Positions 7,764 to 56,716 of a stretch of 64,000 nucleotides of DNA are shown in pieces. Source of the DNA: Anaerolineae bacterium (lineage in GTDB: Bacteria > Chloroflexota > Anaerolineae > Fen-1058); assembly GCA_041300525.1 (NCBI GenBank), contig JBGLNJ010000001.1, positions 748,854-812,853 on the forward strand, in the 5' to 3' direction. Under the pieces are notes generated by a model that saw nothing but the letters and a program-made list of their open reading frames with translations, ran no database searches and was not told where the DNA came from. Within the stretch, counting starts at the first letter, position 1. Every line of letters begins with the position of its first letter. The translations under genes and the position numbers were made by a program.

Positions 7764-7769
7764 CCTGAT

Positions 7770-8798: not shown

Positions 8799-9875
8799 CT
8801 AATGCCGAATGACTAGCGGCAAATAGTTATAAACCCAAATAGGGACCGTCAACACCTTGGTCACGCTGTTCACACTATTACTGGCAGTGACGACGGCAGT
8901 ATAGCTGCCCGCAACACCATAGGCACAAGTGACCGTCGCGCCGCTGCGGATCACGCCATCGCCTAGATTCCAAATGTAGTCCACATTGCTGCCCGTGGGG
9001 ACATACGCCATGAATGTGACGATCTCGCCCGGTTGCTTGGGCCCGTTGTGACTCGCCACCAATGCCGTCGTCACTCGCACATCGTCAATGTACCACTCGT
9101 CAGCACTGTTCCCCTCATAGCGGAACGCCAGGTAGTTGGGCTGACTCGCAAAAGCGCCCAGGCTCACCGACACTTGCTCCCATGTTGATTCGGTCCCCGT
9201 CATCACCTGAGCCAATTCCACAAAGTCACCGTCTTTGGGGTCCGGGCTGCCAGTCGAGATCCATATACTGTGCCTGTAATAGTAGGGCGCGTATCGCTCG
9301 AATTGCCAAAAGACGAGTTGGCTTTCGGCGGTCGGCGTCACGCGGCGGGTGATGAGCCACGCATCTTGCATGCCAAAGGCGTCATCGTGAAACGCGCTGT
9401 AAACGCCGCGATACGCGTGAGCGCTGGCACGCTGCCAGTACACTGACGGGGTCAGGATGCTGCTCGACCAGCCCACCGGCAGCCAGGGTCCTTCAAAGCC
9501 TTCGCTCAACAGCGGAGAGGCAATCGGGATATCCACGCTGACGGTCGTCGTTTGTACGTAGGTGACGATCCCGTCGGTGGCAGTGACCATCGCCGTGTAC
9601 CGGCCTACAGTCGGGTAGGTGTGCATCACGACAAAGCCTTCCGCCAAGGTTCCATCAAAGTCCCAAGTGCAAGTGAAAACGCCCGGGACGGTCACTGTTG
9701 CAGTAAGTGTTGTGATCTCGCCCAGCGCAGTGGGGCTGCTACTGGTCACTACAAGCTCACCGCTCTGCGGCGCAGCCCGTATTTGTGGATCGCCAATGGC
9801 TTGAATGGCGAAGGACATGACCATCATCAAACCGAGAACCAGAACGATTGGCAGCACCAGTAACCAGCAGCGCAT
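8799..9875 (-). CDS. Membrane-anchored PKD - MAM-like/cleaved-adhesin-like - PKD protein; paralog of the C-terminal module of the giant protein
   Basis: Start at MRCWLLVLPIVLVLGLMM, preceded by a strong RBS (TAAGGAGGA). PKD motifs (WDFDGT, WNLGDG). Central domain EGFEG...YRGVYSAFHDDAFGMQDAWLITRRV...LAFRYEGNSADEWYIDDVRV aligns with the giant protein segment EGFEGAF...YCAFYDDLFGLQDGWLVTPRV...LAFRYEGNFSDEWCIDDVRV. Confidence 0.7.
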   Translation of the reverse strand: MRCWLLVLPIVLVLGLMMVMSFAIQAIGDPQIRAAPQSGELVVTSSSPTALGEITTLTATVTVPGVFTCTWDFDGTLAEGFVVMHTYPTVGRYTAMVTATDGIVTYVQTTTVSVDIPIASPLLSEGFEGPWLPVGWSSSILTPSVYWQRASAHAYRGVYSAFHDDAFGMQDAWLITRRVTPTAESQLVFWQFERYAPYYYRHSIWISTGSPDPKDGDFVELAQVMTGTESTWEQVSVSLGAFASQPNYLAFRYEGNSADEWYIDDVRVTTALVASHNGPKQPGEIVTFMAYVPTGSNVDYIWNLGDGVIRSGATVTCAYGVAGSYTAVVTASNSVNSVTKVLTVPIWVYNYLPLVIRH

Positions 9876-9961
9876 GGTGTCCTCCTTAGATTGTGGGGTA
9901 ACCCTCACGGAGCAGGTCGCCCGTGCAAGGGCTGGCACAAGACCTGCCCCAACACATAGCT

Positions 9962-16708: not shown

Positions 16709-16940
16709 GGCCGGCTCTGAGGTGACGCCGGACGTGTTGGCCGAGGTTGGATTTGTAAAGTCCGCCAAGTTGCCTGTGGTTGTTTTGGGAGGGGGCGAGT
16801 TGCCCCATGCCCTCACGGTCAAAGCGCACCGCTTTTCCAAGTCGGCCCAGCAAAAGATAAAAGCGGCCGGCGGCACAGTCGAGGTGTTGCCGTTCGAGAA
16901 AAAGCGTGGCCACTCCACGAAAGGCAGAAATAACCCATGA
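16674..16940 (+). pseudogene. rplO: Ribosomal protein L15 gene, 3' remnant only (C-terminal ~85 aa); N-terminal Gly/Arg-rich half missing
   Basis: ...VGFVKSAKLPVVVLGGGELPHALTVKAHRFSKSAQQKIKAAGGTVEVL is an L15 C-terminus. Its stop overlaps the secY ATG (ATGA). No reading frame upstream encodes the L15 N-terminus; the giant gene's 5' end lies there on the other strand. Confidence 0.6.
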
Positions 16941-18277
16941 TCCAGGCTGTTCGCAACGCCTTTAATCTGCCGGACCTGCGCCGCAAGATCCTGTACACGT
17001 TCTTGATCATGGCGATCTATCGCCTGGCTTCGCACGTGCCAGTGCCGGGCGTCAACCAGGAAGCGCTGAAGCAGTTGCTCCAGGGTGGGTCGGCGGCCGG
17101 GGGCCTCATCAATCTGCTCGATTTGCTGTCGGGTGGGGCCATCGCCAACTTTAGCGTGTTGGCGATGGGAGTGTATCCCTACATCACGGCCTCGATCATT
17201 GTTCAATTGCTGATACCCATCATCCCGTACCTGGAGAATCTGCAAAAGGAGGGCGAAGCCGGACGGAACAAGATCAACCAATTCACCGTCTATGCGACGA
17301 TCCCGCTCGCGCTTTTGCAGGCCATCGGCCAGATTCGCCTCTTGACGGCCGGCACGGGCGGCGAGCAAGTCCTGCCGAGCTTTGGCTTTACCGGCTCACA
17401 ACTCTTGCCCACGATCACCATTCTAATCACGATGACGGCCGGCACGATGTTCGCCATGTGGCTGGGGCAAATGATTGACGAGCAGGGCATCGGCAACGGC
17501 GTCTCGCTGATTATCTTTGGCGGCATTGTGTCGCGTTTGCCACAAAACATTGGCAGTTTGTTGGTGGATCCTGCCACGCGCTGGGTGTCGTTGACGGCGT
17601 TCATCCTGATCACCGTGTTCACCATTCTGGTGATTGTGTACATGCAGGAAGGCCAGCGGCGCATCCCCGTGCAGTACGGCAAGCGCGTGCGCGGGCGCAA
17701 AGTGTTCGGCGGCGGCAGCACGCACATTCCGCTGCGCATCAACACCGCGGGCATGATCCCGCTGATCTTTGCCCAGTCTATTCTGACGTTCCCGGCGGTT
17801 ATCGCGCAGTTCTTGCCGGGTGCAGGGCAAGTTGGCACGTTTGCGCACACGTTGATCGCCATGTTCAGCGGCGGGCGACGTTCGGCTGCAGGTTTTGGGG
17901 ACTGGACGGCGATTTTTTACTGGACCGTGTATTTCTTGATGGTTGTCGGTTTTACGTACTTTTACACTGACGTGATGATGCAGCAGCAAAACCTGCCGGA
18001 TAACCTGCAAAAGCAAGGCGGGTTTATTCCCGGCATTCGTCCCGGCAAACGGACGGAGGAATACATCAACGGGGTGATGCGCCGGATCACGCTGGTGGGA
18101 TCGTTGCTCCTGGGGTTTGTCGCGGTGCTGCCGTTTCTCGTCAGCCCGATCCTGCCTGGCGCGACCAGCTTTTCGTTCATGAGCACGGGCCTGTTGATCG
18201 TCGTGGGCGTGGTGATTGATACGATGCGCCAGCTTGAAGCGCAGTTACTGATGCGCCACTATGAAGGAATTTTCTAG
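16937..18277 (+). CDS. secY: Preprotein translocase subunit SecY
   Basis: 446 aa, 10-TM SecY topology and motifs (GGLINLLDLLSGGAIANFSVLAMGVYPYITASIIVQLL). Confidence 0.95.
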   Translation: MIQAVRNAFNLPDLRRKILYTFLIMAIYRLASHVPVPGVNQEALKQLLQGGSAAGGLINLLDLLSGGAIANFSVLAMGVYPYITASIIVQLLIPIIPYLENLQKEGEAGRNKINQFTVYATIPLALLQAIGQIRLLTAGTGGEQVLPSFGFTGSQLLPTITILITMTAGTMFAMWLGQMIDEQGIGNGVSLIIFGGIVSRLPQNIGSLLVDPATRWVSLTAFILITVFTILVIVYMQEGQRRIPVQYGKRVRGRKVFGGGSTHIPLRINTAGMIPLIFAQSILTFPAVIAQFLPGAGQVGTFAHTLIAMFSGGRRSAAGFGDWTAIFYWTVYFLMVVGFTYFYTDVMMQQQNLPDNLQKQGGFIPGIRPGKRTEEYINGVMRRITLVGSLLLGFVAVLPFLVSPILPGATSFSFMSTGLLIVVGVVIDTMRQLEAQLLMRHYEGIF

Positions 18278-19934: not shown

Positions 19935-20033
19935 GGAGTGTCGAATGTCGAGTTCCGAATGTCGAATTTGGAGTTGCACATTTCTCTCATTCGACATTCG
20001 TCAATTGACACTCGACATTCGAGGGGGGTGAGC
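19935..20033. repeat. Inverted heptamer-array hairpin (GTCGAAT/CGAATGT ... CATTCGA units) filling the map-rpmJ spacer where infA normally sits
   Basis: GTCGAATGTCGAGTTCCGAATGTCGAAT ... CATTCGACATTCGTCAATTGACACTCGACATTCG. Its translation forms the spurious N-terminal extension of the rpmJ-frame ORF. Confidence 0.6.
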
Positions 20034-37512: not shown

Positions 37513-38817
37513 CTACTTGCCGAACGTGATCCGGTAGATAACCCCGCCCTTGTCGTCGCTAACCATCAAGCTGCCGTCCGGCGCGACGGCCAACCCCACG
37601 GGCCGCCCCGAAACCTGACCGCCCTTCAGCCAACCTGTGGCAAAGTCCTTCACCAGCCCGGGGGGCTTGTCGCCGTCGAGCGGCACAAACACCACCTTGT
37701 AACCGGTGGGCACGCTGCGATTCCATGAGCCGTGGAACGCAATGAACAAGCCGTTGCGATATTCGGATGGGAACTGTGCGCCGGCGTAAAACGCCAACCC
37801 CAGCGGGGCCGAGTGTGCCTGCATTTCGACGACCGGCTTGGCGACGCCATCGCACGCGCCGGGATTGCCAAATTCGGGGTCAATGATGCGCCCACTGTGA
37901 CAGCGCGGCCATCCGGCGTCCAGGCCGTCTTTGACGATGTAGATCGTTTCGGGCGGGTTGTCGTCGCCGAGCCAGTCGCGTCCCATGCCGGTGGCCCATA
38001 GCTCGCCGGTGCGCGGATTGATCGCCAAGCCAACGGCATTCCGCAATCCGCGCGCGAACACGCGCCCATTCTTGCCGTCCACATCGTATACCATCACAGC
38101 AGCGCGGCGCTCGTCTTTTTCAATACACACGTTGCAGCTCGACCCGATCGAAACGTACAGCTCGCCCGTGGGGCCAAACAACACGGTGCGTGTGTTGTGA
38201 CCACCGGACGGCAGGCCATCAATCACTACACTCCGCTTGATGGCGCGATGCGTGATGGGATCAAGCTCGAGCCGCGTGATGCGCGTCGTCTCGCCGACAT
38301 ACAGCGAACCATCCGATGCGAATGCCAGTGAGGACGGCGCGATGAGATTCTCGGCCACGACGATGGGCGCATCGGCCACGCCATCGTCGTTGGCATCCAC
38401 CAATGCCACAATCCTGTTGGCTCCACGCTCGGCCACATACAACACGCCATCCGGCCCATAGGTCATAAAGCGCGGCCCGTTGAGCCGGGCAAAGAGAGTA
38501 GCGCGAAAACCGGACGGCAGTTGCACATCGGTTGCGATAGGAGCACGATTGACCGGCGTCGGCTTGGGCAAGGCTGTGGCCGTCGGTGAAACGGCTGGAG
38601 GTGGAGACACGACGAGTGGCGTTGACGTGGCAGGTGGAGTTGGTGCGCTAGTTGGCGGTAAGCTCACAAGCGGCAAAGTAGCAGGCGAAATTGGCGTACC
38701 AGTCGGCGGCACGCTCGCGATTGGCGCGGCCTTACATGCCGCCACCAAACACATCAGCAAGACAGCGCCGACACACCCGAGTCGACACCTCCTCACAGGT
38801 CTCCATTCATCATTCAA
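37513..38817 (-). CDS. PQQ-dependent sugar (glucose/sorbosone) dehydrogenase family lipoprotein
   Basis: Lipobox LLMCLVAAC, Pro/Thr/Ser linker, six-bladed propeller motifs (GPDGVLYVAERGANRIVAL; GPDGSLMVSDDKGGVIYR). Annotated start is inside a heptamer repeat; the likely true start is the GTG at ~38796. Confidence 0.75.
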   Translation of the reverse strand: MNDEWRPVRRCRLGCVGAVLLMCLVAACKAAPIASVPPTGTPISPATLPLVSLPPTSAPTPPATSTPLVVSPPPAVSPTATALPKPTPVNRAPIATDVQLPSGFRATLFARLNGPRFMTYGPDGVLYVAERGANRIVALVDANDDGVADAPIVVAENLIAPSSLAFASDGSLYVGETTRITRLELDPITHRAIKRSVVIDGLPSGGHNTRTVLFGPTGELYVSIGSSCNVCIEKDERRAAVMVYDVDGKNGRVFARGLRNAVGLAINPRTGELWATGMGRDWLGDDNPPETIYIVKDGLDAGWPRCHSGRIIDPEFGNPGACDGVAKPVVEMQAHSAPLGLAFYAGAQFPSEYRNGLFIAFHGSWNRSVPTGYKVVFVPLDGDKPPGLVKDFATGWLKGGQVSGRPVGLAVAPDGSLMVSDDKGGVIYRITFGK

Positions 38818-38851
38818 TATTCGTCACTCGTCACTCGACATTCGTCATTCA
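38797..38851. repeat. Heptamer tandem array (CATTCAT CATTCAA TATTCGT CACTCGT CACTCGA CATTCGT CATTCAT) between the acyl-CoA dehydrogenase stop and the PQQ-DH start
   Basis: Read directly from the sequence. The ORF's MNDEW start is encoded by GAATGAT GAATGGA units. Confidence 0.6.
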
Positions 38852-40576
38852 TCAAAACGGGCTGGCCAGAACAACGTCTCTGACTTGCAGCGGCGTTGGA
38901 TCGGCGGCCTGAATCGCCGCGGCCGCGCCTCGCACCTTGGGCAAATGCTCGGCGATGTAGACGTGAGCCATCGCCCGCTTCCTGTCTGAGGCGCGCGCGT
39001 CTCGCAGCAGCAGCCACGAGTTGACCACATACGCCGCCATGTCCATCACGTCGGAAGCGTAATACTCGATCACGGGCGTGTCACACTCTTTCAAGTGATC
39101 GGCGCACCGGTTGAAAAGTGCGGTCGCGTCCATCACCTGATTCTTGAGCGGGGCCAGCTCCAGGCCATAGTCCTGCGCGGCCCAGTCGTTCAACAAGTCG
39201 TCGAGCGCGTGGCCCAACAACTTGCCGATGACGGCGACCACTTGCATTTGGCTGGTGCCCTCATAAATGTTCGTCACGCGAACGTCGCGGTAATGGCGCT
39301 CCACATTAAACTCGCGCATGTAACCGACGCCGCCATGAACTTGCATCGCCTGGTAACAGACGCGGTTGCCCATCTCGGTGGCATAATACTTGGTCAGCGG
39401 CGTCAGGGTTTCGGCCAGCTTGCTGGCCCGCTTGAGGCGCGCTCGATCCGCCGGGTCCGGCTTGGCGCTTTCGGCGATGCGCCGGTCGTAGGCCTTTTCC
39501 AAATCCACCCAGCGCCCGGCTTCGCAAACCAACGCCCGCACCGACTCGATCTCACTCCGCATCGTCAGGAGCATACGAGTCACAGCCGGCAGGTTGCGAA
39601 TGGCCTGATTGAACTGGACACGCTCGTGAGCATAGCGGTGCGCTTCGCGATAGGCGGCTTCGGCAATGCCCAGCGCCTGGGCCGATACCGCCAGCCGCGC
39701 GCCGTTCATCAACCCCATCGCATAACGAATCAGTCCCATGCGCCGCTTGCCGATCAACTGCGCCGGCGTGTTGTTGTACTGGATTTCGCACGTCGGCGAA
39801 GCGTGCAGGCCGACTTTGTTTTCGATGCGGCGGATCTGAACCGTCTCGTCCTTTTCCACCAGGAACAGCGAAAGGCCGCGTGGATCGGTCGTGCCCTCTT
39901 CGCTCCGGGCCAGCACCACCATAATCTCGGCGCAGCCGTTGGTGATGAAGCGCTTGACGCCGTTGATGCGCCACACGCCGGCCGCCTCGTCAAACGTGGC
40001 GCGCGTCTGCACCGATCCCAAATCGGACCCGGCGTCCGGCTCGGTGAGCACCATCGCGCCCGCCACCTCGCCGCGGGCAAAACGAGGCAACACGCGCGCT
40101 TTCATCTCTTCGCTGCCAAACTCGCTGATGGACGAGGCGATCTCTTGCAGCCCGAAAACCGTCATCAGCCCGGCCTCGGCGCGCGAGACGATCTCGACCA
40201 TCATCTGGTAGATCGTCTCCGGCAAGTTCATCCCGCCGTATTCCCACGGCAGCATTATCCCCATCAGCTCGGCCTGCTTGAGCGCCTTGAGCGCGTCTTG
40301 AGTGGCAGCCGAGTAACGCACCTGGCCTGCCTCGAAATGCGCGCCCTCTTCATCCGCTTCCGCCGCGCGCGGAGCGACCACCGTCGCGCAGATTTCGCCG
40401 AGCACTTTTAACAGGATGCCGTAATTATCTTTGGCGTCCTCATAGTGACGCGGCGCGGAGGGATACTTTTCTCGATAGGTGTAACCCTTTTCTCGAATTT
40501 CGACGACCTCGCGCAAGTCGGTCCTATCCAGATAAAACTGAAGGTCAAGGTTATCCAGGAAAAAATTTTCGGCCAT
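38852..40576 (-). CDS. Acyl-CoA dehydrogenase family protein (long, ~570 aa)
   Basis: ACAD N, middle and C-terminal domain motifs (GGMNLPETIYQMMVEI...; YEGTSQMQ). Confidence 0.85.
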   Translation of the reverse strand: MAENFFLDNLDLQFYLDRTDLREVVEIREKGYTYREKYPSAPRHYEDAKDNYGILLKVLGEICATVVAPRAAEADEEGAHFEAGQVRYSAATQDALKALKQAELMGIMLPWEYGGMNLPETIYQMMVEIVSRAEAGLMTVFGLQEIASSISEFGSEEMKARVLPRFARGEVAGAMVLTEPDAGSDLGSVQTRATFDEAAGVWRINGVKRFITNGCAEIMVVLARSEEGTTDPRGLSLFLVEKDETVQIRRIENKVGLHASPTCEIQYNNTPAQLIGKRRMGLIRYAMGLMNGARLAVSAQALGIAEAAYREAHRYAHERVQFNQAIRNLPAVTRMLLTMRSEIESVRALVCEAGRWVDLEKAYDRRIAESAKPDPADRARLKRASKLAETLTPLTKYYATEMGNRVCYQAMQVHGGVGYMREFNVERHYRDVRVTNIYEGTSQMQVVAVIGKLLGHALDDLLNDWAAQDYGLELAPLKNQVMDATALFNRCADHLKECDTPVIEYYASDVMDMAAYVVNSWLLLRDARASDRKRAMAHVYIAEHLPKVRGAAAAIQAADPTPLQVRDVVLASPF

Positions 40577-40656
40577 GAAATGTTCTCCTCCCTCTCCTAC
40601 CCCCTGCCCTCTCCCGCTCCCAAATTTGGGAGGGGGTGAGGGGTGGGCAAGGGCAG

Positions 40657-41286
40657 TTATTTCGCTTTCTCGCGCAAGGCGCGAATGAGCATGGGAATCA
40701 CTTTTGCCACGTCGCCGACGATCTTGTAGTGCGCGATTGAAAAGATCGGCGCGTTGGGATCGGTGTTGATGGCAATGATCTTGGACGACTCGCTCATCCC
40801 GGCTCGATGCTGGATCGCGCCCGAGATGCCCGCCGCAATGTACAATCGGGGCACCGTGCGCCCGCTCTCCGCTTCGATAAAAGCGGCGAGTCGTTCGAGC
40901 TTTTCCGCAATGACCTCGTGATAATCATCGCCCCAGGCGTAGCGTGCCACAACCCCCACCCCCCGCCCCCGCGTGCGCGCCGCGTGCGGGAGAGGGGAGT
41001 AGTAGTTCATCGCCACCACGACGACGGAGCGGGCCGAGGGCAACAGCTCGCGCACGTCCGCGCGACGCGCGACGGCGTCAGGTCGCGCGAGGTAGCTCAT
41101 TCCGCCGTGATGGCCGCGCGCGAGCCAATCGGTGTAGCGCGCGTGCGTCGTCGCCGCCCCTGCCGCCGTCACGCCGGCGAGGTCAAAACCGATTTCGCGC
41201 GCCTCGCGTTTGATGCGCTCGGCGAGTGTCTTTTCTTCAGAAGACGTCATCGCCGAAAGTATACAACTCTCCCGCAGGTTTGCCAA
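40657..41286 (-). pseudogene. Chimeric ORF: QueG (epoxyqueuosine reductase) N-terminal ~140 aa fused in frame to EtfA C-terminal ~65 aa
   Basis: N-terminal part [12 protein letters not shown]...[16 protein letters not shown]...[10 protein letters not shown]...[12 protein letters not shown] is QueG-like. C-terminal part [62 protein letters not shown] is EtfA-like. Neither the QueG Fe-S domain nor the EtfA N-terminal domain is present. Confidence 0.6.
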
Positions 41287-41629
41287 CCTGCGGGAGGGTA
41301 AAGGTTGTCGCGCAAAATTTCTAGTCGCAGCGCCGGAACATTAAAAAAAGGCCGCTCGCGCCGGAAAATCAACCTTGGCTAGAGCGGCCTCGTATAAGGC
41401 CCGGAATCTTGAATGATGACTCGAGTGGGGCCGGGCGCTGTAATACGCCAGACTCAGAAAGTGAAGAAGAGGGTGGGTGTGCTACTCAACTCAATCCAGT
41501 AAGGTAAGCGATAAAGTTAGAAACCCAACCCCACTCGCAGCTTTATCATATCCCAAAATGCAAAATGTGCCGTTAGCGTTGTGTTGCAATTGTATGAATA
41601 TTGCATTGCAACCCAAAGGGTCTGGTAGT

Positions 41630-42640
41630 TCAGCTTTCCCACGTTGGCTTTGCGCCGGTTGCTTCGAGTCTTTCCTTCTCCGGGTTGTAGCGGAACAGCG
41701 GCTGGAGTACGTAACGGTCATTTTCCAGTCCTCGCAGTTCCACGATCTGCGTGATCTTGCGCTTGCCGGACGGCAATCGTTCCTGATACACGATCAGCCG
41801 CAGCGCGGAAGCGATCGTGCGGCGAATGTCGCTCAGGCCCAGGCCGAGGTTTGCCATCAGGCACATCGCCTCCAGCCGGTTGAGCGCATCTTCCACGCTG
41901 TCTGCGTGCGTGTTCATGAGGCCAACGTGCCCACGGCTCATGATCTGGAGCGCGCGCATCGCCTCCGACCCCCATATCTCGCCGATGACGAGCCAGTCCG
42001 GTCTCATGCGCGCCGCCGTGTCGAGCAGGTCGGCAAACGAGACGTTGGCTGGGCCGCCGGCTTCGAGGCAAAGGCAACGTAGATGGCTCACCCGCATTTC
42101 CTGTATCGCTTCGACGACAATGACGCGCTTTTCCGGCGGGATCAATTCGGCGATGCGGCTTGCCAGAGTGGTTTTGCCGGAAGAGGCGCCGCCCGCGATC
42201 AACGTGATCACGTTCGCACGCATCGCGCGCTGCAGGAATTCGTATGTTTCTTGGGTGACGGCGCCGAACTCTATCAGTTTTTCCCACGTGATCTCGCGCG
42301 CGAGCGTGCCCAGCATCCGCCGGATGACCAGGCACGGGCTATCCGGCGCGGTCGGCGGGATGACGGCCATCATGCGGTTGCCGTCGGGAAAGCGCACATC
42401 GGCGCACGTCTTGTGTGGGCCGAGCGTGATGCCCTCCAGCGCCAGGACGGCATCCATCACCGCGCGAATGTCCTCTGGCGATGTGAAGGGCGAGGCGATG
42501 TCCTGCAATTGTTGACCCTCGGTGGAACGGCGTTCGACGTACACACGGTCGGGCGCGTCTACCATGATCTCGTTGACGGTTTCGTCCTGGTAAAGTGGGG
42601 CGAGCGGCCCCAGCGCATTGAGCAATTCGTTCTCGTTCAT
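41630..42640 (-). CDS. CpaF/TadA/VirB11-family secretion ATPase (orphan)
   Basis: Walker A GGASSGKTT, Asp/His boxes. Start MNENELLNALGPL. No cognate platform or pilin genes nearby. Confidence 0.75.
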   Translation of the reverse strand: MNENELLNALGPLAPLYQDETVNEIMVDAPDRVYVERRSTEGQQLQDIASPFTSPEDIRAVMDAVLALEGITLGPHKTCADVRFPDGNRMMAVIPPTAPDSPCLVIRRMLGTLAREITWEKLIEFGAVTQETYEFLQRAMRANVITLIAGGASSGKTTLASRIAELIPPEKRVIVVEAIQEMRVSHLRCLCLEAGGPANVSFADLLDTAARMRPDWLVIGEIWGSEAMRALQIMSRGHVGLMNTHADSVEDALNRLEAMCLMANLGLGLSDIRRTIASALRLIVYQERLPSGKRKITQIVELRGLENDRYVLQPLFRYNPEKERLEATGAKPTWES

Positions 42641-42748
42641 GGTTGCCTCCTGTCGCTTGATTTGCAGACAGTATAGTCCAAATCGCCTCGCCGCCGCTTC
42701 CGCCATTACCACAGGTGAGACCCTCGCCAAGACCACAGGGAAATGTCC

Positions 42749-44023
42749 CTATCCTCCCATCTCGACGGCCACCACGTCATAATAGGTGCCGGCCCCAAAG
42801 CCGTCAAACAGCACGTGATCGCCGGGTTTCAAGCTGACCAGCTTCCGAAGGAAGGCGATCATATTCGACGCCGCGCTCACGTTGCCAAAGTCGCTCAAGA
42901 GCCACGGCATCGGAAAACGAATACCTTCTTTCAGCAGGTGCTTTTCTATGAGCTGGTTGATCTTCAAGTTAGCATGGTGGACAATCGCCACGGCGATTTG
43001 TTTTCCGGGCGTGCCCAATTCGGCCATGCGTTTCTGATACGACTGGTAGACATTCCGCACGGCAACGACGCCGGATCGGACAAAGAGCTTGACCATGCCC
43101 ATCGGTCCGGCCATCACCACCGACCCCGCCTCGTCTTCCGGCTCGTGCATCAGCCCGGCAACACGAAAATGGTTCTCCCCCGCCTGGGACGCCTCGATCG
43201 CCGACTGACCTCCAACTCTTGTGCGCGAGTGCGGGTAGGACATGCGCACTTGCAGCAGCCCCTCTTCATCATACACTTCGTGCGTTCCGCCCGCCAGGAA
43301 CTTGACTGTCCGGCCCGGAATCACTCCGATAACTCCTGCGCCGGTTCCAAACAACTGGAGCGCCTGTGTGTCGCGGGCGCGCCGCATGTACCGGCTCAAT
43401 CCCTCGATCCCGCCGACCAGAATCTTTTTGCCATGCAATTCTTCGGCCAGGTTTAGGGGCAGTTGCCGGTTGATGGGCAGTTCCGGATTCAATGCCAAGT
43501 GCAGTCCGGCCACGGAACCGTCACAGGCCTTGTGAAGGCTCACCTTCAGCGCGCTGTCCGGAATCCCGGCTTCTCTCGCGATACGCGCCGTATAGTCGGC
43601 CGTTGCCGGCGCGGTGAGGCCGATCAGCACAGCCTGGACTTGAGTTGGATCCCAGCCACTGGCGTGGGCTGCTTCAGTCAGTAACCGGGCGCCCACTTGC
43701 ACTTCCAGCTCGATATCCTCCTCGTCAGACAGCTTGGGAAGATGATGCCGGTGCGTGAATCCCAACTCGGAGAGGTGCAATCTCTCTTCATCCCGGAGTG
43801 GATGACCCAGGCGCTCTTCGATCAGGTCGGGCAAAGTGGCATTATCGTAACACTTGCCCCAGGTTCCATACGCCCCCCCGATCCCGACCTCGGCATTAGA
43901 AACCCGCTCAATACCCAGCGGGATTCCGTGCCCAACCGGGATTTCCTCGACCTGTACCTGAGGGCGATCAAAGAAGGAACCGGTTGCAGTTGGCGTGGCC
44001 TGTGTTGTTTCGATCTCATTCAT
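42749..44023 (-). CDS. 3-oxoacyl-ACP synthase III (FabH)-like condensing enzyme with a ~100-aa N-terminal extension
   Basis: Cys HKACDGSVAGL, His HHANLKINQL, and C-terminal GFGAGTYYDVVAVE. Confidence 0.7.
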   Translation of the reverse strand: MNEIETTQATPTATGSFFDRPQVQVEEIPVGHGIPLGIERVSNAEVGIGGAYGTWGKCYDNATLPDLIEERLGHPLRDEERLHLSELGFTHRHHLPKLSDEEDIELEVQVGARLLTEAAHASGWDPTQVQAVLIGLTAPATADYTARIAREAGIPDSALKVSLHKACDGSVAGLHLALNPELPINRQLPLNLAEELHGKKILVGGIEGLSRYMRRARDTQALQLFGTGAGVIGVIPGRTVKFLAGGTHEVYDEEGLLQVRMSYPHSRTRVGGQSAIEASQAGENHFRVAGLMHEPEDEAGSVVMAGPMGMVKLFVRSGVVAVRNVYQSYQKRMAELGTPGKQIAVAIVHHANLKINQLIEKHLLKEGIRFPMPWLLSDFGNVSAASNMIAFLRKLVSLKPGDHVLFDGFGAGTYYDVVAVEMGG

Positions 44024-44109
44024 GTTCCTTACCCTCGCAGAAAAAGAGTAACTCGCTGGCTCATGGTATTAACACCACGCTGCTCAGATAGTTGTGTCAA
44101 TGGCACGAG

Positions 44110-44550
44110 TTATGCTGTATGTCCTGCCCCAATCCACCCCTGCCTCAACCCATACGTCGCCGCCTCCGTCCGCGAATTTGTTCCGGTTTTATTGAACACC
44201 GAATTCATGTGAAACTGGATCGTCCGCTCACTCAAGCCCAGCCGATAAGCGATCTCTTTGTTCGTCAGCCCGTCAGCGGCGAGCGTCAGCACTTGCAGTT
44301 CGCGTGGCGAGAAAGGGTGAGCGGCAAGGGAGAGTGGTTCGAGCGTGGCCTGCGCGTCGCGGGCTTCGGCGAGCGCCTGGCGGGCCAGTTCGCCGAGCGC
44401 GGCCACCGCCGCCCGCGCCGGATAATTGTCGGACGGCAAAGCACGCTCGTAGGCGCGGGCCTGGGCCGTGAGGAGATCGAGCGTGTCTATCAGCCCGGCG
44501 AGCAGCGCGGACGGCGCATCAGGACCCGATGTTTCTTGTGTGGAGGCCAT
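44110..44550 (-). CDS. LuxR-family transcriptional regulator (C-terminal HTH)
   Basis: LSPRELQVLTLAADGLTNKEIAYRLGLSERTIQFHMNSVFNK. Confidence 0.75.
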   Translation of the reverse strand: MASTQETSGPDAPSALLAGLIDTLDLLTAQARAYERALPSDNYPARAAVAALGELARQALAEARDAQATLEPLSLAAHPFSPRELQVLTLAADGLTNKEIAYRLGLSERTIQFHMNSVFNKTGTNSRTEAATYGLRQGWIGAGHTA

Positions 44551-44727
44551 AGATTTACGGCATCATGATCTGGCGAGCGTGCTTGTCTGTCGGTTGATGA
44601 GAGCAGGGTGTAAATATCACCAGTATCATTCTAGCATAAAACGGCGCTCTTGTGCAGCGACTTTGCGCATTGGGGCGGATTCTGTTATAGTTGCGAACGT
44701 CAAAAGAAAAATGTCGAAGGACAAAGA

Positions 44728-46386
44728 GTGAATCGTAAAGTTTTGATCATCGGCCTGGACGGCGCGACGTGGACGAACCTCCAGCCGTGGATTGACGCGG
44801 GCAAGCTGCCGCACCTGGGTCAACTCGTGGCCGACGGCGCGGCCGGCCCGCTGACGACGACGATCCCGCCCGTGTCGGCTTCGGCGTGGGTGTCGTTCGC
44901 CACAGGCTGCAACCCCGGCCAGCACGGCGCATTCGACTTTGTGTTCCCCCGCCCAAATGCTTACGACATCGGCGTGGTCAACGTCAATGTGCGCAGCGTG
45001 GCGCCGTTCTGGAAGGTGATCGAGGATGCGGGCGGACAGGTGGGGCTGGCGAGCGTTCCCATCACCTACCCGCCGCAGCCCATCCACGGCTGGACGGTGT
45101 GCGGGTTCCTCGTGCCCAACGAGCAGGCCGCGTATACTCAACCGCCCGAACTCAAGGAGCAAATCAAAGCGGCGGGCCTCACCTGGCCGCTGCACGAGTT
45201 CGAGGGCAACCGCAGCCGCGACCCGCGCAAGTTTCTTCAAGACATGCGGTACTTTGACGAGTCGCGCACGCAGGTGGTGACGTGGCTGATGCGCAATCGC
45301 CCGTGGGATTTGGTGTCGTTCGTCATCAAGACGACGGACACGACCCAGCACGAAATCTGGCACCTGCTCGATCCGCAACATCCACGCCACGATGCCGCGA
45401 TGGCCGCGCGCGTGAAGGACGACATCCTGGCGTATTTCCAGGCGATGGATGCGTGCGTGGGCCAACTGGTCCAAGCGGCCGGGCCGGGGGCGACCGTCGT
45501 CGTGATGAGCGATCACGGCGGCGGGCCGTTCGAGAAATTCTTTCACGTCAACAACTGGCTGGCTTTGCAAGGGTTCCTCAAGTTCAAGCGGACGCCGCTG
45601 ACCCTGGTCAAGCGCGCGCTGTTTGCGGCCGGCTTTACGCCCATCACCGCACTCAAGATCGTCAACCTGCTGCGATTGGGCAAGCTGCGCAAGAACGTCA
45701 AGCGCGGGCGCGGGCGCGGCTGGATGGGGCAACTGTTCCTCAGTTTGCGCGACGTGGATTGGACGCGCACTCGCGCATTTTCCATCGGCAACTTTGGGCA
45801 GATTTACATCAACGCAAAGGGCGCGCGGCCGCAAGGCATTGTCGAGCCGGGCGACGAGTACGAAGCTGTGCGCGACAAAATCATTCGGCAAGCACTCGCA
45901 TTGTGCGATCCCGAAACAGGCGATGCCGTCATCCGCGCAGCGTACAAGCGCGAGGAGCTGTATCACGGCGGGCGGCTGAACTATGCGCCCGACATTATCC
46001 TGCACACCGACCGCAGCAAGTACGTCTCCTTCGGCCACGCCGATTTTGGGAGCAACAAGCTCATCGAGCCTTCCATCGGACAGACCGGGCATCACACCAT
46101 GGAGGGCATCGTGATCCTGCGCGGCGCGGACATTCCGGCTGGCGTGCGCGTCGAGGGCGCGAACATCATGGACATTGCGCCGACGGTGCTGGCGCTCATG
46201 GGTCTGGATGTGCCGGAGGAGATGGATGGCAAGGTGCTGCTTGGAGTGGAGACAGGGGGACAAGGTGACAGGGAAGTTGGCAGAGGAATAGGGGAACAGG
46301 AGAACAGAGGAGAGGAAAATCCATATTCTGAGGAAGATGAGGCGCAGGTGATGGAGCGCCTGCGCGAGTTGGGATATGTTGCCTAA
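44728..46386 (+). CDS. Alkaline phosphatase superfamily protein (type I phosphodiesterase / nucleotide pyrophosphatase-like), paralog A
   Basis: GTG start; VLIIGLDGATW...TTIPPVSASAW metal-site motifs; SDHGGG. Acidic C-terminal tail. Confidence 0.8.
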   Translation: MNRKVLIIGLDGATWTNLQPWIDAGKLPHLGQLVADGAAGPLTTTIPPVSASAWVSFATGCNPGQHGAFDFVFPRPNAYDIGVVNVNVRSVAPFWKVIEDAGGQVGLASVPITYPPQPIHGWTVCGFLVPNEQAAYTQPPELKEQIKAAGLTWPLHEFEGNRSRDPRKFLQDMRYFDESRTQVVTWLMRNRPWDLVSFVIKTTDTTQHEIWHLLDPQHPRHDAAMAARVKDDILAYFQAMDACVGQLVQAAGPGATVVVMSDHGGGPFEKFFHVNNWLALQGFLKFKRTPLTLVKRALFAAGFTPITALKIVNLLRLGKLRKNVKRGRGRGWMGQLFLSLRDVDWTRTRAFSIGNFGQIYINAKGARPQGIVEPGDEYEAVRDKIIRQALALCDPETGDAVIRAAYKREELYHGGRLNYAPDIILHTDRSKYVSFGHADFGSNKLIEPSIGQTGHHTMEGIVILRGADIPAGVRVEGANIMDIAPTVLALMGLDVPEEMDGKVLLGVETGGQGDREVGRGIGEQENRGEENPYSEEDEAQVMERLRELGYVA

Positions 46387-47599: not shown

Positions 47600-48349
47600 A
47601 TGCCGGAAGAATACAATAAACTTGCGGAGGGCATTGTCAAAGGCTCCGTCCCGATGGTCGCCAGCTTTGTCGAACGCTACGTCTCGGACGACGAGCCTGG
47701 CTTTTTCGTGGGCGACCGGGAACACGTCGAAGGTGACATCCGCGTTCACGTGACGGTGTTCGGGCAACTGGAGCAAGCCAACTCGCACCTCACGGACTCG
47801 ATTCAAATGGGCGTGGTGGATTTGCAGCAGTTGCCTGACGGGCGTGTATGGATGGTGGTCGGCGCGCTGCCTACGCTGGCAGAAACCGAAGCCTGGTTGA
47901 CCGATCTGTATTCGGCGATGGTGCGCCGGATGGCGGCGCGGCTGGTGCAGTTTGGATTCCTGGACGCGCCGAACCGCCCGCGATTGCGGGCAGCTTCTAC
48001 GATGGCGCTGACGCAGGTGGCTCAGGCGCTCAAACCGCCCAAGCCTGTTCCCGCGCCACAACCGCCTCCCACGCCGGCCGCGTCGGCTGCGTCGGCTGCG
48101 CCGATAGCGCAAGCCGCCGAACCGCCCCAAGCTGCTACGCCTGTCAGGCCGAGTGTGGCAACTGCGTCGGCCAGCGCGCCCGTCGCGCCTGCGCACCGGG
48201 TTGTGCCTTCGCCGTCAGCCCCTTCGCCTGACCTGTTCAGCCCGCCGTCCTTCCAGCAACTCGATCTCGTGCTCACGATTGCGATGGTGTTCATCTGGGT
48301 GGCGGCATGCGGACTGTTGTTTTACCTCTTGACCCTGTTGTTGAAATGA
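47600..48349 (+). CDS. Hypothetical protein with Pro/Ala-rich linker and C-terminal TM anchor
   Basis: 249 aa; C-terminal LVLTIAMVFIWVAACGLLFYLLTLLL. Stop overlaps the next gene's ATG (ATGA). Confidence 0.5.
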   Translation: MPEEYNKLAEGIVKGSVPMVASFVERYVSDDEPGFFVGDREHVEGDIRVHVTVFGQLEQANSHLTDSIQMGVVDLQQLPDGRVWMVVGALPTLAETEAWLTDLYSAMVRRMAARLVQFGFLDAPNRPRLRAASTMALTQVAQALKPPKPVPAPQPPPTPAASAASAAPIAQAAEPPQAATPVRPSVATASASAPVAPAHRVVPSPSAPSPDLFSPPSFQQLDLVLTIAMVFIWVAACGLLFYLLTLLLK

Positions 48350-49983
48350 ACCGACTCCTCGTGATCGGACTGGACGGGGCAACGCTCGACCTCGTTCGCC
48401 CCTGGGCCGCGCAAGGCCATCTTCCCCACCTCGCCAAGCTCATCGCCGAAGGAACGCACGGGCCGCTCGAATCCACGCTGCCACCGGTCACGTCGCCGGC
48501 GTGGCCGTCGTTCGTCACCGGCAAGAACCCGGGCCGCCACGGCGTATTTGATTTCATCCGCCCGCGGACGGGCGGCCTGCGTACAGGCGCGTTCGACATG
48601 GTCAACGCCAGCCAGATTGACGGGCGGATGATTTGGGAATACCTCTCGGACACAGGGCTGACGTGCGGCGTGCTCAACGTGCCGATCACCTACCCACCGC
48701 GCAAGGTCAACGGGTACCTCGTGCCCGGCCTGCTCAGTCCCGACCAGGGCAAGACGACCTACCCGCCGGAATACCTGGCGCCTTACGAGGCAGAGCTTGG
48801 CCCGTATCGGCTGACGCCGCGTGTCTCATACAAGGCGGGCAACGAAGATGCCTTCATCGCCGACATTGCCGACCTGATCGAGACGCAGGCGCGTTACGCG
48901 CTGCGCCTGATGCGCGATCATCCGACAGATTTCACGATGGCGCATTTCCTGGCGACGGACATTAGCCAGCACGCGCTATGGAAACATCAGGACCCGACTC
49001 ACCCGGCGCACGATCCCGCGCAGGCGGCGCGCTACGGCAACGCCATCCGCGACATTTACGCGCGGCTCGACGCTGTCCTCGGCCAGATGATGGCGCTGGC
49101 GCCCGATGCAACGGTCATCGTGATGAGCGATCACGGGTTCGGGCCGCTGCATCGCATCGTCAACCTGAATATGCTGTTCCTCGAAGCGGGACTGCTCGCG
49201 CTCAAGCCGACGCCGTGGGTGCGTCTGCGCGCGTGGGCGTTCAAGCGCGGGCTCACGCCGGCGGCTGTGTGGAAGGTCATCGAGCGTGTTGGCCTGCAGA
49301 ACATGGTCTGGCGCGTGAGCAAGAAAGCGCGCAACGAGGTCGTGGGCAAATTCCTGGGTTTCGAGGATGTGGACTGGTCACGCACGCTGGCGTATTCGAT
49401 GGGGCACGTGGGCCAGGTGTACGTCAACCTCAAGGGGCGAGAGCCGCAGGGCATCGTTGAGCCGGAGGATTACGTGGCGGTGCGCGAGCGCGTCATCGGC
49501 GTGCTCAAGACCTTGGGCGACCGCGAGGGATCGCCCTTACATATTGATCGCATCATCCCGCGCGAAGAGACGGCGTCTGGCCCGTACCTCGACCGCGCGC
49601 CCGATCTGCACGTGGTGATGGATGGTTATCGCACCATTGCGTTTCCGCTATTCGCCGTGGACGGCAAGATCGTCACGCGGCAGATTCGGGGCGATTCGGG
49701 CTGCCATCGCCTGCACGGCGTGTTCATCGCGCGCGGCGCGGGCATTGCTCACGGCGAGATTGCGGGCGCGCGCATCATTGACCTCGCGCCGACGATCCTG
49801 CACCTGATGAACGTCCCCGTGCCGGACGACATGGACGGGCGTGTGCTGACCGAGGCGCTCGTCACGCCGCGCCCGGTCGAGACGCAGACTGCCCTGCCTG
49901 CCTCGCACGCGCAACAAGACTTTACCGCCGAAGAAGCCGCCGAGGTGGAAGAGAGGCTGAGGGCGCTAGGCTATCTAGGTTGA
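48346..49983 (+). CDS. Alkaline phosphatase superfamily protein (type I phosphodiesterase / nucleotide pyrophosphatase-like), paralog B
   Basis: MNRLLVIGLDGATLDL...TLPPVTSPAW; SDHGFG. Same architecture as 44728..46386. Confidence 0.8.
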   Translation: MNRLLVIGLDGATLDLVRPWAAQGHLPHLAKLIAEGTHGPLESTLPPVTSPAWPSFVTGKNPGRHGVFDFIRPRTGGLRTGAFDMVNASQIDGRMIWEYLSDTGLTCGVLNVPITYPPRKVNGYLVPGLLSPDQGKTTYPPEYLAPYEAELGPYRLTPRVSYKAGNEDAFIADIADLIETQARYALRLMRDHPTDFTMAHFLATDISQHALWKHQDPTHPAHDPAQAARYGNAIRDIYARLDAVLGQMMALAPDATVIVMSDHGFGPLHRIVNLNMLFLEAGLLALKPTPWVRLRAWAFKRGLTPAAVWKVIERVGLQNMVWRVSKKARNEVVGKFLGFEDVDWSRTLAYSMGHVGQVYVNLKGREPQGIVEPEDYVAVRERVIGVLKTLGDREGSPLHIDRIIPREETASGPYLDRAPDLHVVMDGYRTIAFPLFAVDGKIVTRQIRGDSGCHRLHGVFIARGAGIAHGEIAGARIIDLAPTILHLMNVPVPDDMDGRVLTEALVTPRPVETQTALPASHAQQDFTAEEAAEVEERLRALGYLG

Positions 49984-52596: not shown

Positions 52597-52702
52597 TCAA
52601 TGTCATTAAGATAAGCGTAGCATAGCCCCTTGTGGGCGTCTTTCCAAGCGCGGAAACGGGCACAAGGCCCTACGCTACGGCCCTAACTTAACGACAGTCA
52701 AT
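52597..52702. repeat. ~100-bp repeat element, copy A (inverted relative to copy B at 56587..56690)
   Basis: TCAATGTCATTAAGATAAGCGTAGCATAGCCCCTTGTGGGCGTCTTTCCAAGCGCGGAAACGGGCACAAGGCCCTACGCTACGGCCCTAACTTAACGACAGTCAAT. Its reverse complement matches copy B with ~1 mismatch over ~97 nt. Confidence 0.8.
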
Positions 52703-52949
52703 AGCGTATTTGCAGGGTTTCATTGGGGCTCCTCACATAATGTACGGATAGCAAGGAGCCAATTATACCGTCGGATTACTTTTGAGACACGGTAGTAGTA
52801 GCGTCTGCCATGCAAAACATGACACGCGCCCGTATCGAATCGCTGCATCATGCGCTTGACAGTACCATCAGAGTGTGGTATCTTTCGGGCCGTCAGCAGC
52901 ACATTGAGAATATAACCTAAAGACGTTGAATCGGACGAGTAACCGTCGG

Positions 52950-53303: not shown

Positions 53304-53365
53304 TTCTCCCTTCTTCCTTGTAGGGAGAAGGGCGGCCCACAGTAGTGGGCAGGGGGATGAGCGTG

Positions 53366-54853
53366 ATGTACCAACCGACCTATTCCGAATTTGAGGCGCT
53401 GGCCGCGCGCGGCAATTTGATTCCGGTCTATCGTGAGATCAACGTGGATTTGGAGACGCCTGTGTCAGTCTATTTGAAATTGCGCGGCGAGGGCAAATCG
53501 TTCCTGCTCGAATCGGTCGAGGGCGGCGAGCAACTGGCGCGCTATTCGTTCCTCGGCGTGAATCCCGCGCGGGTGCTGACGCTGCGCGGCGACCAAGTGA
53601 CGATTCGTAATCACGCGCGCGTCGAACAGTTTTCGCTCGACGGGCGTGACCCGCTGGAGGCGTTGCGGGGATTCCTCGCGCCGTATCAATCGCTGCCGGT
53701 GGCAGCGCGCAGCGTGCCGCGCTTTTTCGGCGGCGCGGTCGGGTATCTCGCTTACGACATCGTGCGCCACATCGAGCGACTGCCCAACACCGCGCGCGAT
53801 GAGCTTGATCTCCCCGATGCGATGTTTCTGTTGGCGGACACCGTCATCGCCTTCGACCACGTCAAGCATCGCGCGCTCGTCATCGCCAATGCGCATGTTG
53901 AGGGTAACCCGAGCGCCGCTTACGACGACGCGGTGGCGCGCATCGAGCACCTCATCGCGCGCTTGAATCAGCCGATGCCGAAGCCTTCTCCTGCGCCCTC
54001 CCGCAATGGTCACGCTCTCGAATCGAACGTTTCGCCGGAGCAGTACGCGCAGAGGGTGGAGCGCGCGAAGGAATACATCGCCGCCGGCGACATTTTCCAG
54101 GTCGTCCTTTCGCAGCGGTTTGGGCGTGAGACGCGCGCAGACGCCTTTTCGATTTACCGCGCGCTGCGGCGTTTGAACCCGTCGCTGTACATGTTCTTTT
54201 TGGACTTGCGCGAAATGCAGTTTATCGGCTCGTCCCCCGAAGTCCTGGTGCGGCTCGAAGACGGCCTGGCGCAGCTCAACCCCATCGCTGGGACGCGCCC
54301 GCGCGGCGCAGACGAGGCCGCCGACGCCCGCCTTGAAGAAGAACTGCGCGTGGATCCGAAAGAGCGCGCGGAGCACGTCATGCTGGTGGATTTGGGACGC
54401 AACGATTTGGGGCGCGTGTGCGAGTACGGCTCGGTGCAGGTGCCCGATTTCATGACCGTCGAAAGATACTCGCACGTGATGCACCTCGTCTCACGCGTCA
54501 CCGGCAAGCTGCGCGCCGAGTTGGACGGGTTCGACTTGCTCCGCGCGACCTTTCCCGCCGGGACCGTTTCCGGCGCGCCCAAAGTCCGCGCGATGGAGAT
54601 CATTGAAGAACTCGAAGGCACGCGGCGTGGGCCGTATGCGGGCGCGGTCGGCTATCTGGGATTCCCCGTCGCCGGCAAGGGCAATATGGATTTTTGTATC
54701 ACGATTCGCACCATCGTTCAACGCGGGCCACAGGCGTTCATCCAGGCCGGCGCGGGCATCGTGGCCGATTCCGATCCGATGCGCGAGCATCAAGAGTGCG
54801 TGAACAAGGCCCGCGCCCTGGCCGAAGCGATCCGATTGGCGGAAGAAGGCTAG
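53366..54853 (+). CDS. trpE: Anthranilate synthase component I
   Basis: Chorismate-binding-enzyme C-terminal motifs (GAVGYLGF...G..DFCITIRT) and N-terminal Trp-feedback region (LLESVEGGE). Confidence 0.9.
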   Translation: MYQPTYSEFEALAARGNLIPVYREINVDLETPVSVYLKLRGEGKSFLLESVEGGEQLARYSFLGVNPARVLTLRGDQVTIRNHARVEQFSLDGRDPLEALRGFLAPYQSLPVAARSVPRFFGGAVGYLAYDIVRHIERLPNTARDELDLPDAMFLLADTVIAFDHVKHRALVIANAHVEGNPSAAYDDAVARIEHLIARLNQPMPKPSPAPSRNGHALESNVSPEQYAQRVERAKEYIAAGDIFQVVLSQRFGRETRADAFSIYRALRRLNPSLYMFFLDLREMQFIGSSPEVLVRLEDGLAQLNPIAGTRPRGADEAADARLEEELRVDPKERAEHVMLVDLGRNDLGRVCEYGSVQVPDFMTVERYSHVMHLVSRVTGKLRAELDGFDLLRATFPAGTVSGAPKVRAMEIIEELEGTRRGPYAGAVGYLGFPVAGKGNMDFCITIRTIVQRGPQAFIQAGAGIVADSDPMREHQECVNKARALAEAIRLAEEG

Positions 54854-54944: not shown

Positions 54945-55517
54945 ATGATTCTCGTCATAGACAATTACGATTCTTTCACCTACAACCTCGTCCAGTACCT
55001 GGGCGAGCTGGGCGCGGAGCTGCGCGTCTTTCGCAACGACGCCGTGACGCCGGACGAGATCAAGCGACTCTCGCCCTCACACATCGTCATTTCTCCTGGC
55101 CCCGGCGGCCCAGGCGACGGCGGCATCTCGACCGGCGTCATCCGCGAGTTTCATCGTGACGTGCCCCTCCTGGGCGTGTGCCTGGGACACCAGTGCATCG
55201 GACACGTGTTCGGCGGCGTGGTGGGACGCGCGCCGCGTTTGATGCACGGCAAAACCTCGGCGGTTTATCACGATGGGCGCGGCGTCTTTGAAGGCGTACC
55301 GAGTCCGTTCGAGGCGGGCCGTTATCACTCGCTCATCGTCCAGGAACCGCTGCCGGACGAATTGCGCGTCACGGCCTTTACCAAGGAAGGCGAAGTGATG
55401 GGCCTTCGCCACAAGCGTTATCCGCTCGAAGGAGTGCAGTTTCACCCTGAGAGTGTGCTGACCAGATTCGGCAAACAGATCCTCAAAAACTTTTTAGACT
55501 ATGGAGGCCAAGCGTGA
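54945..55517 (+). CDS. trpG: Anthranilate synthase component II / glutamine amidotransferase (TrpG/PabA type)
   Basis: [23 protein letters not shown]...; catalytic GVCLGHQ. Confidence 0.9.
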
Positions 55518-56536
55518 TCCGCGAATCAATCGCCAAACTGATGGATGATCAGAACCTGACACTCGCCGAAGCCGAAAGTGTGATGAACGAGATCATGGAC
55601 GGCTTGGCGACACACGCGCAGATGGCGGCGTTCCTGACGGCGCTGCGTTTGAAAGGCGAGACGGTGGACGAGATCACCGGCTGCGCGAAGGTGATGCGCG
55701 ACAAAGCGGTGGCGGTCCAGCCGACCCGTACGGATCTGGTGGACACGGCCGGCACGGGCGGCGACGGCGCGGACACGTTCAACATTTCCACGACGGCCGC
55801 ATTCGTCATCGCCGGCGCGGGACTGGGCGTGGCCAAGCACGGCAATCGGGCCGTGTCGAGCCAGAGTGGCAGCGCGGATGTGCTCGAGGCGCTCGGCGTG
55901 AACCTCGATCTGACGCCGGTCCAGGTGGCACGGTGCATTGACGAGATCGGCCTCGGGTTTTTGTTCGCCCAAAAGCTGCACCCCGCGATGAAGAACGTCG
56001 CGCCGGTCCGCAAAGAACTCGGCATCCGCACCATCTTTAACATCCTCGGCCCGCTGACGAATCCCGCGCGCACGCCCGCGCAGATCGTGGGCGTGTACGA
56101 CGCGCGGCTCACGACGACGATGGCGCACGTTTTGCACGCGCTCGGCGCGCGCGCCGCATTTGTGTTTCACAGCGAGGACGGCCTGGACGAGCTCACGACG
56201 ACGGGCATTAACCAAGTCGCACGTTTTGACAACGGCACGGTTTACGAAGGGGAACTGGATGCGTGCGCGTTGGGGCTGGCGCGCGCCTCGCGCGCCGACT
56301 TGCGTGGCGGTCGCCCCGATCAGAACGCGCAGACCACCCAGAACGTCCTCTCCGGCGCAGAGTGCGGTCCCAAGCGCGACGTGGTGGCGTTGAACGCGGC
56401 GGCGGCACTTGTCGCCGGCGGCAAGGCGCGTGACCTCCGGGAAGGTCTCGAACGCGCGAGCGATTCAATGGATTCAGGCGGGGCCATGCGCGTACTGGAT
56501 GGCCTGGTGGCGTTGAGCAACAGTTTTAGATTGTAG
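55514..56536 (+). CDS. trpD: Anthranilate phosphoribosyltransferase
   Basis: ...[22 protein letters not shown]...; 340 aa. Confidence 0.9.
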
Positions 56537-56586
56537 ATTTCAGGTTGCAGATTTTAGATTAGCCGTCCCATTCTAACAATCCGCAA

Positions 56587-56690
56587 TTCAATGTCGTTAA
56601 GTTAGGGCCGTAGCGTAGGGCCTTGTGCCCGTTTCCGCGCTTGGAAAGACGCCCACAAGGGGCTATGCTACGCTTATCTTGATGACATTG
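56587..56690. repeat. ~100-bp repeat element, copy B (inverted relative to copy A), between trpD and trpC
   Basis: ATTCAATGTCGTTAAGTTAGGGCCGTAGCGTAGGGCCTTGTGCCCGTTTCCGCGCTTGGAAAGACGCCCACAAGGGGCTATGCTACGCTTATCTTGATGACATTGA. Confidence 0.8.
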
Positions 56691-56716
56691 ATCCGCAATT
56701 TAGGATCGGAAATCCA

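Follow-up and report, generated by a model that had tools for sequence, protein, structure and literature searches.

Chimeric pseudogenes and open reading frames (ORFs) arise at illegitimate-recombination breakpoints in bacterial genomes. Genes can also be split by large DNA elements, as with sigK and skin in Bacillus and the nifD and fdxN elements in heterocystous cyanobacteria. The locus described here combines parts of two otherwise unconnected genes. One parent is etfA, which encodes the electron transfer flavoprotein alpha subunit EtfA/FixB (PF01012 plus PF00766) and belongs to an etfB-etfA-acyl-CoA dehydrogenase (ACAD) operon, and the other is queG, a tRNA-modification gene for tRNA epoxyqueuosine(34) reductase (TIGR00276). 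In B. subtilis, QueG comprises a cobalamin domain (residues 2-189), a two-cluster ferredoxin domain (190-256) and a HEAT-like tRNA-binding domain (257-385), with Asp134 as the proposed catalytic acid (PMC5175355).

Here we examine an ORF in a 64-kb stretch of DNA (the window) where the 5′ part of queG runs directly into the 3′ end of etfA. The ORF resembles known breakpoint chimeras in that it abuts unrelated fragments with no more than 1 nt of microhomology and no mobile element, appears to come from a strain-specific recent event, and is missing essential domains. It differs from them in that it does not reflect a simple deletion: one missing half persists while the other is apparently lost, and the join is known from assembly alone. 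As in split genes of the sigK/skin type, the two halves of queG occupy distant sites on one chromosome, and neither has decayed. Unlike in those systems, however, there is no recombinase, att-like repeat or mobile-element gene beside the join, and the DNA abutting the N-terminal half of queG is ordinary chromosomal etfA-ACAD DNA that is syntenic with relatives.

Results

The ORF first flagged spans positions 40657..41286 of the window on the minus strand and encodes 209 aa, reading from a TTG at 41286 to a stop codon at 40657-40659. The most likely real coding sequence is slightly shorter (40657..41250, minus strand), giving a 197-aa product from an ATG at 41250 that is identical to database protein P0001. 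This protein originates from a 5,201,286-bp NCBI contig and is the single member of its cluster. The ATG at 41250 is most likely the true start of the chimeric coding sequence, as it is shared with the P0001 entry and with homologues. Eight nucleotides before this ATG ends a promoter-like site, TTGGCA-17-TATACT (10/12; 41258..41286, minus strand), which, going by a consensus match only, would be the queG promoter now driving the chimera.

The composition of the ORF is clear from its domain matches, given here in the numbering of the 209-aa version. In Pfam, PF08331 (QueG_DUF1730) matches aa 75-142 with 76.6 bits against a cut-off of 25.1, covering profile positions 1-67 of 77. PF00766 (ETF_alpha) follows at aa 141-165 with 30.4 bits and is represented by profile positions 56-81 of 81 only, and the ETF N-terminal domain, PF01012, has no Pfam match in the ORF. 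In NCBIfam, positions 1-126 of the 337 in the QueG model TIGR00276 align to aa 25-150, scoring 87.7 bits, which is below the curated whole-protein cut-off of 200 bits. Several EtfA/FixB equivalogs match aa ~140-206 through their final ~60-65 profile positions only, with scores of 47-83 bits compared to cut-offs of 240-600 bits. Chains from the PDB concur, with matches to ETF alpha C-termini (4KPU_A 269-334 and 1EFV_A 247-315) and to QueG (5D08). When intact EtfA was searched against the window by tblastn, residues 269-340 matched and nothing else did. The original prediction of an in-frame chimera between a QueG N-terminus and an EtfA C-terminus is thus upheld by Pfam, NCBIfam and PDB chains alike.

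The queG 5′ fragment (40852..41250, minus strand) consists of codons 1-133 (MTSSEEK...AESGRTV), and its product is orthologous to the N-terminal part of the cobalamin-binding domain, with the histidine of the DYH motif kept. Relative to B. subtilis QueG, the protein is cut at the equivalent of residue ~126. About two-thirds of the cobalamin domain is kept and no more of QueG; the rest of that domain, the ferredoxin domain with both 4Fe-4S motifs, and the HEAT-like domain are missing. The catalytic Asp is absent as well: alignment of P0002, the nearest relative of this QueG, to 5D08 puts the Asp134 equivalent, the D of ICVDTS, 7 residues past the point of fusion. The etfA 3′ fragment (40657..40851, minus strand) comprises the last 64 codons plus the stop codon, ends in REKAK, and corresponds to residues 278-340 of the intact EtfA P0064, to which it has 100% amino acid identity. 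The P0064 cluster has one member, located on a 2.6-kb contig. Compared with EtfA/FixB of the etfB-etfA-ACAD operon, the chimera has the same tail, the same spacer and the same 574-aa ACAD downstream, but it lacks PF01012 and the first 55 of the 81 PF00766 positions, and there is no etfB upstream.

We next consider whether this architecture recurs. A protein search of 5.8 billion sequences gave 5,214 matches, and among the best 120 of these the only protein with PF08331 and PF00766 together was P0001, from the source genome itself. All remaining proteins among these 120 are full-length QueG (~324 aa, best identity 84%) or full-length EtfA (~340 aa). With P0001 as the lone two-domain protein among the listed matches, we conclude that there is no fusion family, and the earlier claim that two unrelated genes were fused holds; full-length homologues of equal two-part architecture, which would have spoken against it, were not found among the best 120 of 5,214 matches. 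An open reading frame behind a plausible promoter is what one would expect of a functional QueG-N/EtfA-C fusion kept by selection as a new architecture. We nevertheless regard such a protein as extremely improbable, given that no second example appeared among those 120 matches, that both folds are cut (QueG inside its cobalamin domain and 7 residues before the catalytic Asp proposed in PMC5175355, EtfA with PF00766 positions 56-81 of 81 alone kept), and that a conspecific strain has an unfused etfA of identical sequence.

The two homologies meet at a single point. By tblastn and blastn, QueG homology runs from 41250 to 40852 and EtfA homology from 40851 to 40660, which fixes the breakpoint at 40851..40852 and agrees with the original placement of a join near 40.85 kb. 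On related metagenome contigs, the queG locus of relative L001 aligns by blastn to window positions 46382 to 40852 and the etfB-etfA-ACAD locus of relative L003 aligns to 40852 to 38822, so that both alignments end at one common base, the join. On the minus strand, the window reads ...GGGCGCACGGTG up to the join and CCCCGATTGTAC... beyond it. Intact conspecific etfA at the same point reads ...GTGACGGTGCGG followed by CCCCGATTGTAC, while queG relatives continue past the break point as ...ACGGTG GCG CAC AAG (A-H-K-I-C-V-D-T). Across the break point, wild-type queG is therefore ...ACGGTG followed by GCGCACAAG..., and wild-type etfA is ...ACGGTGCGG followed by CCCCGA.... Microhomology at the join is at most 1 nt; the hexamer ACGGTG is common to both sides, but 3 nt out of register. 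Both queG and etfA are cut between codons at the join and the fusion is therefore in frame, a state that is unremarkable here since the ORF caught attention precisely by being in frame.

No Ns and no k-mer overlap duplication are present at the join, and no repeat, IS element, integrase or other mobile-element gene, tRNA or Rfam match lies near it. An event mediated by an IS element, a repeat or a tRNA was rejected on these grounds. A chimera of two organisms was rejected as well: GC content is similar on the two sides (0.595 and 0.615), and each matches JGI relatives at ~88-89% and two sister MAGs at 99.7-100% nucleotide identity. GC skew was uninformative as a signal of inversion because it tracks gene orientation. 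No second copy of the join turned up in exact-protein look-ups, and none of the ACAD, KASIII-like and 64-aa EtfA-tail sequences had an identical record. Two scans of JGI metagenomes, aimed at the join, at its wild-type continuation and at the conspecific queG, gave 0 matches.

Two contigs from sister MAGs, on whose accessions a literature search found nothing, bear directly on the join. The first, L007 (GCA_041300535.1, contig JBFYTQ010000168.1, 2,644 bp), carries partial etfB, etfA and partial ACAD. It is 100% identical to window positions 40852-39780 over 1,073 nt, up to the join, including the whole etfA 3′ fragment, and continues upstream into intact etfA and partial etfB. Identity right up to the break identifies L007 as part of a conspecific genome with intact etfBA. 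All 17 of its mismatches, 16 of them synonymous, fall within the contig's last 167 nt (2478-2644, window 39779-39613); this cluster may reflect either recombination within the ACAD gene or a contig end that is a mosaic of strains.

The second contig, L089 (GCA_041300495.1, short-read contig JBFYTR010000516.1, 4,520 bp), was found by exact look-up of the T2SSE protein encoded in the window. It aligns end-to-end to window positions 45371 to 40852 at 99.7% identity, with 12 differing positions and with its final 1,400 nt identical, and it ends exactly at 40852 with a 133-codon partial queG. By chance, its end would coincide with the join in about one of several thousand cases. De Bruijn assemblers stop extending a contig where two alternative continuations diverge, after the last base that both have in common. 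The end of L089 at 40852 suggests an assembly-graph branch there, most simply read as the presence of both wild-type queG and the rearranged form in the L089 sample. The source sequence is unbroken and gene-intact over 64 kb and passes the other ends of both L089 (45371) and L007 (39613).

In relatives, queG and the etfB-etfA-ACAD operon sit in unrelated neighbourhoods. The queG-side flank of the window (41630..46386), with T2SSE ATPase, KASIII-like, GerE/LuxR and phosphodiesterase genes, is collinear with the queG locus of L001 and with L089; the upstream synteny of T2SSE, KASIII-like and GerE genes is like that of queG loci in relatives. No etf genes occur within 10 kb downstream of queG in L001, no queG occurs within 10 kb upstream of etfB in L003, and an orthologous etfA or ACAD was found at 0 of 82 queG loci from diverse genomes with flanks of up to 10 kb. 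The window also lacks two blocks present in L001: macB/ftsX with an ABC ATPase (~2 kb; L001 2536-4472, window 44550-44650), between the phosphodiesterase and GerE genes, and a 90-aa ORF with a B12-binding radical-SAM gene (~2.3 kb; L001 7652-9942, window 41309-41341), directly upstream of queG. The boundaries of both blocks are intergenic.

On the other side of the join, the intact 574-aa long-type ACAD (38852..40576, minus strand) is the last gene of the former etfB-etfA-ACAD operon. It has 91% amino acid identity to the ACAD of L003 and 99.7% to the partial ACAD on L007. The etfA-ACAD spacer is 80 nt long and contains a conserved imperfect palindrome (40602..40647), an original part of the operon within the stretch that is 100% identical to L007. 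Relatives L003-L007 have etfB directly upstream of etfA, and the window has the N-terminal part of QueG directly upstream of the EtfA tail where relatives have etfB. The ACAD had been described as left without an adjacent ETF partner, and indeed no etfBA adjoins it here, whereas relatives and the conspecific MAG have etfB-etfA-ACAD.

We then asked what became of the missing halves. A query made of the last 193 aa of the closest QueG identified P0126, a 176-aa protein with a Fer4_16 domain only, encoded by a separate ORF on the same 5,201,286-bp contig as P0001. It begins 17 residues beyond the break and carries both Fe-S motifs, CGTCTRCIKACP and CDACQEACP. P0126 is not encoded in the 64-kb window, so its distance from the join exceeds 23 kb if it lies on one side and 40 kb if it lies on the other. 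P0002 is the nearest relative of both QueG halves, with 84-85% identity to the N-terminal half and 91% to P0126. These N/C divergence ratios are normal for the family, which argues against decay in either half. For EtfA, a query with the N-terminal 276 aa returned no product of at least ~215 aa from the 5.2-Mb contig among the best 120 matches, which reach down to ~474 bits, with remnants scoring below that value falling outside them. As judged from these matches, the source appears to lack an intact orthologous EtfA, and no clean reciprocal EtfA-N::QueG-C product is among those listed. The junction of a tandem or segmental duplication, which would leave queG and etfA intact elsewhere, was rejected because the matches listed from the 5.2-Mb contig include neither protein in intact form.

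These results speak to the mechanism first proposed, in which one interstitial deletion between neighbouring queG and etfBA genes of the same orientation removed etfB, most of etfA and most of queG. Both fragments lie on one strand and in frame, and etfB and the 5′ part of etfA went undetected in the source contig among the best 120 matches, as such a deletion predicts. The QueG C-terminal half, however, persists elsewhere on the same contig, and the parent loci are apart in relatives and at every one of the 82 queG loci, making a deletion very unlikely and leaving a breakpoint (inversion, translocation or complex rearrangement) or a mis-join. The proposed check for intact queG and etfAB elsewhere in the genome likewise came out in part: none was listed from the 5.2-Mb contig, but the C-terminal half of QueG is present as a separate ORF.

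Several other features were observed in the window. A comEC remnant (6932-8279, plus strand) has a DUF4131 domain in ORF 6932-7726 and a 1-nt frameshift near 7636-7650 into ORF 7524-7763, where PF03772 (Competence) matches at positions 8-32 of 270 only (...AFRTTGTSHVIAISGYN). The remnant is cut off at ~7730 and is followed by ~480 bp of lower GC (0.525 compared to ~0.60) with a weak PD40-like 169-aa ORF (7770-8279). A 118-aa DUF218 ORF (4014-4370, minus strand), divergent from a KDPG aldolase gene at 4414, matches profile positions 45-110 of 133 only, from residue 8, and may be truncated at its N-terminus. The locus at 8799-17368 (minus strand) is of a large surface or adhesin type, encoding a 2,468-aa protein with PKD, Big_3_3, Big_13 and DUF11 domains and then a 388-aa PKD-domain protein.

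Repeated sequences include a 114-nt inverted repeat (52597-52710 and 56578-56691; 96% complementary, lower GC of ~0.51) that flanks trpE (53345-54853), trpG (54945-55517) and trpD (55514-56536). A family of short intergenic repeats of ~35 nt each, composed of TCGACATTCG-like units, occurs at 6897, 19987, 29923, 38810 and 59510. Some of these form local palindromes (19936-20022), and one copy is located just downstream of the ACAD stop codon (38810-38858). Two paralogous genes for PF01663 type I phosphodiesterase / nucleotide pyrophosphatase (44650-46386 and 48307-49983, plus strand) lie 2 kb apart and have a common conserved 46-nt stretch (repeat family D7).

Discussion

We favor, with a probability of roughly 60%, the interpretation that the chimera marks a very recent real rearrangement breakpoint, non-homologously joined and probably polymorphic in the population, that left behind an inactive chimeric ORF. 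We hypothesize a strain-level event, likely inversion, translocation or something more complex in which DNA was lost at the second junction. In queG the break would have fallen after codon 133, and in etfA before codon 278, with the ends joined by illegitimate recombination essentially without homology. The queG promoter and start codon would now drive a 197-aa QueG(1-133)::EtfA(278-340) polypeptide. The comEC remnant, frameshifted and shortened, shows that gene remnants do occur in the source genome. Against a rearrangement, an inversion that was clean and reciprocal should have left an in-frame EtfA(1-277)::QueG(134-324), and the C-terminal half of QueG is instead called on its own. With this reciprocal product missing from the matches listed, an extra loss has to be assumed, in which etfB and the 5′ part of etfA would have disappeared at the second junction. 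Large rearrangements without repeats or IS elements at their joins are also uncommon in bacteria, and the look-ups and metagenome scans gave no second copy of the join.

The main competitor, possible although we consider it clearly the less probable, is an assembly artefact: the organism would have intact queG and etfBA, contig ends within queG and etfA would have been mis-joined, scaffolded or concatenated, and the in-frame ORF would be a coincidence. The end of L089 exactly at 40852 marks this base as an assembly break point in the species, and the same match of contig end and join is expected if contigs broken at this base were placed end to end to make the 5.2-Mb sequence. The 100% identity of the etfA side to an intact conspecific allele and the undecayed state of both queG halves are what one would see if nothing had occurred in vivo. 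A C-terminal QueG half elsewhere, with etfB and the 5′ part of etfA missing from the matches listed, fits pieces placed apart and a short unbinned contig, and the join is blunt and without a repeat. On the other hand, the source runs without interruption and with its genes intact through 64 kb, across the sister contig breaks at 45371 and 39613, with neither Ns nor k-mer overlap duplication at the join. That a contig of another assembly also ends at this base is beyond what a random chimeric read could produce and calls for a real branch in the population, and the 12 differences between L089 and the window indicate that the source was not built from L089.

A more elaborate version of a real rearrangement is also conceivable, in which an illegitimate rearrangement, now a polymorphism in a natural Anaerolineae-type population, inactivated queG (queuosine maturation) and the dedicated etfBA of the long-type ACAD at once, and the fusion persists by keeping the ACAD transcribed and translated from a captured, leaderless-type queG promoter (promoter capture without polarity). 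We consider this improbable. A rearrangement and a mis-join are both ordinary explanations, and with either one the chimera is neither a new kind of protein nor a simple deletion.

Returning to a recent rearrangement as the favored reading, the most sensible description of the chimera, judged from its sequence, would be an inactive by-product, effectively an expressed or expressible pseudogene that is neither QueG nor EtfA. It would be inactive because it lacks the QueG catalytic Asp, Fe-S clusters and tRNA-binding domain, and everything of EtfA save the tail of the FAD domain. We infer that queG is non-functional in the source genome, in which case tRNA modification would stop at epoxyqueuosine unless the genome encodes a second reductase, for example QueH. 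The etfBA genes cognate to the ACAD would have been destroyed, and transcription of the ACAD would depend entirely on queG-promoter transcripts that read through the 80-nt spacer.

For biology at large this finding carries little weight, since both genome rearrangement and assembly errors are known to produce chimeric ORFs at breakpoints. It does illustrate that an apparent deletion fusion is testable by seeking the missing halves elsewhere in the same assembly. For annotation, we recommend marking the 197-aa "protein" as a pseudogene or a fusion artefact and not propagating it as QueG or EtfA. Unless the join proves to be a mis-join, the genome should be scored as lacking a functional queG and the cognate etfBA of its ACAD.
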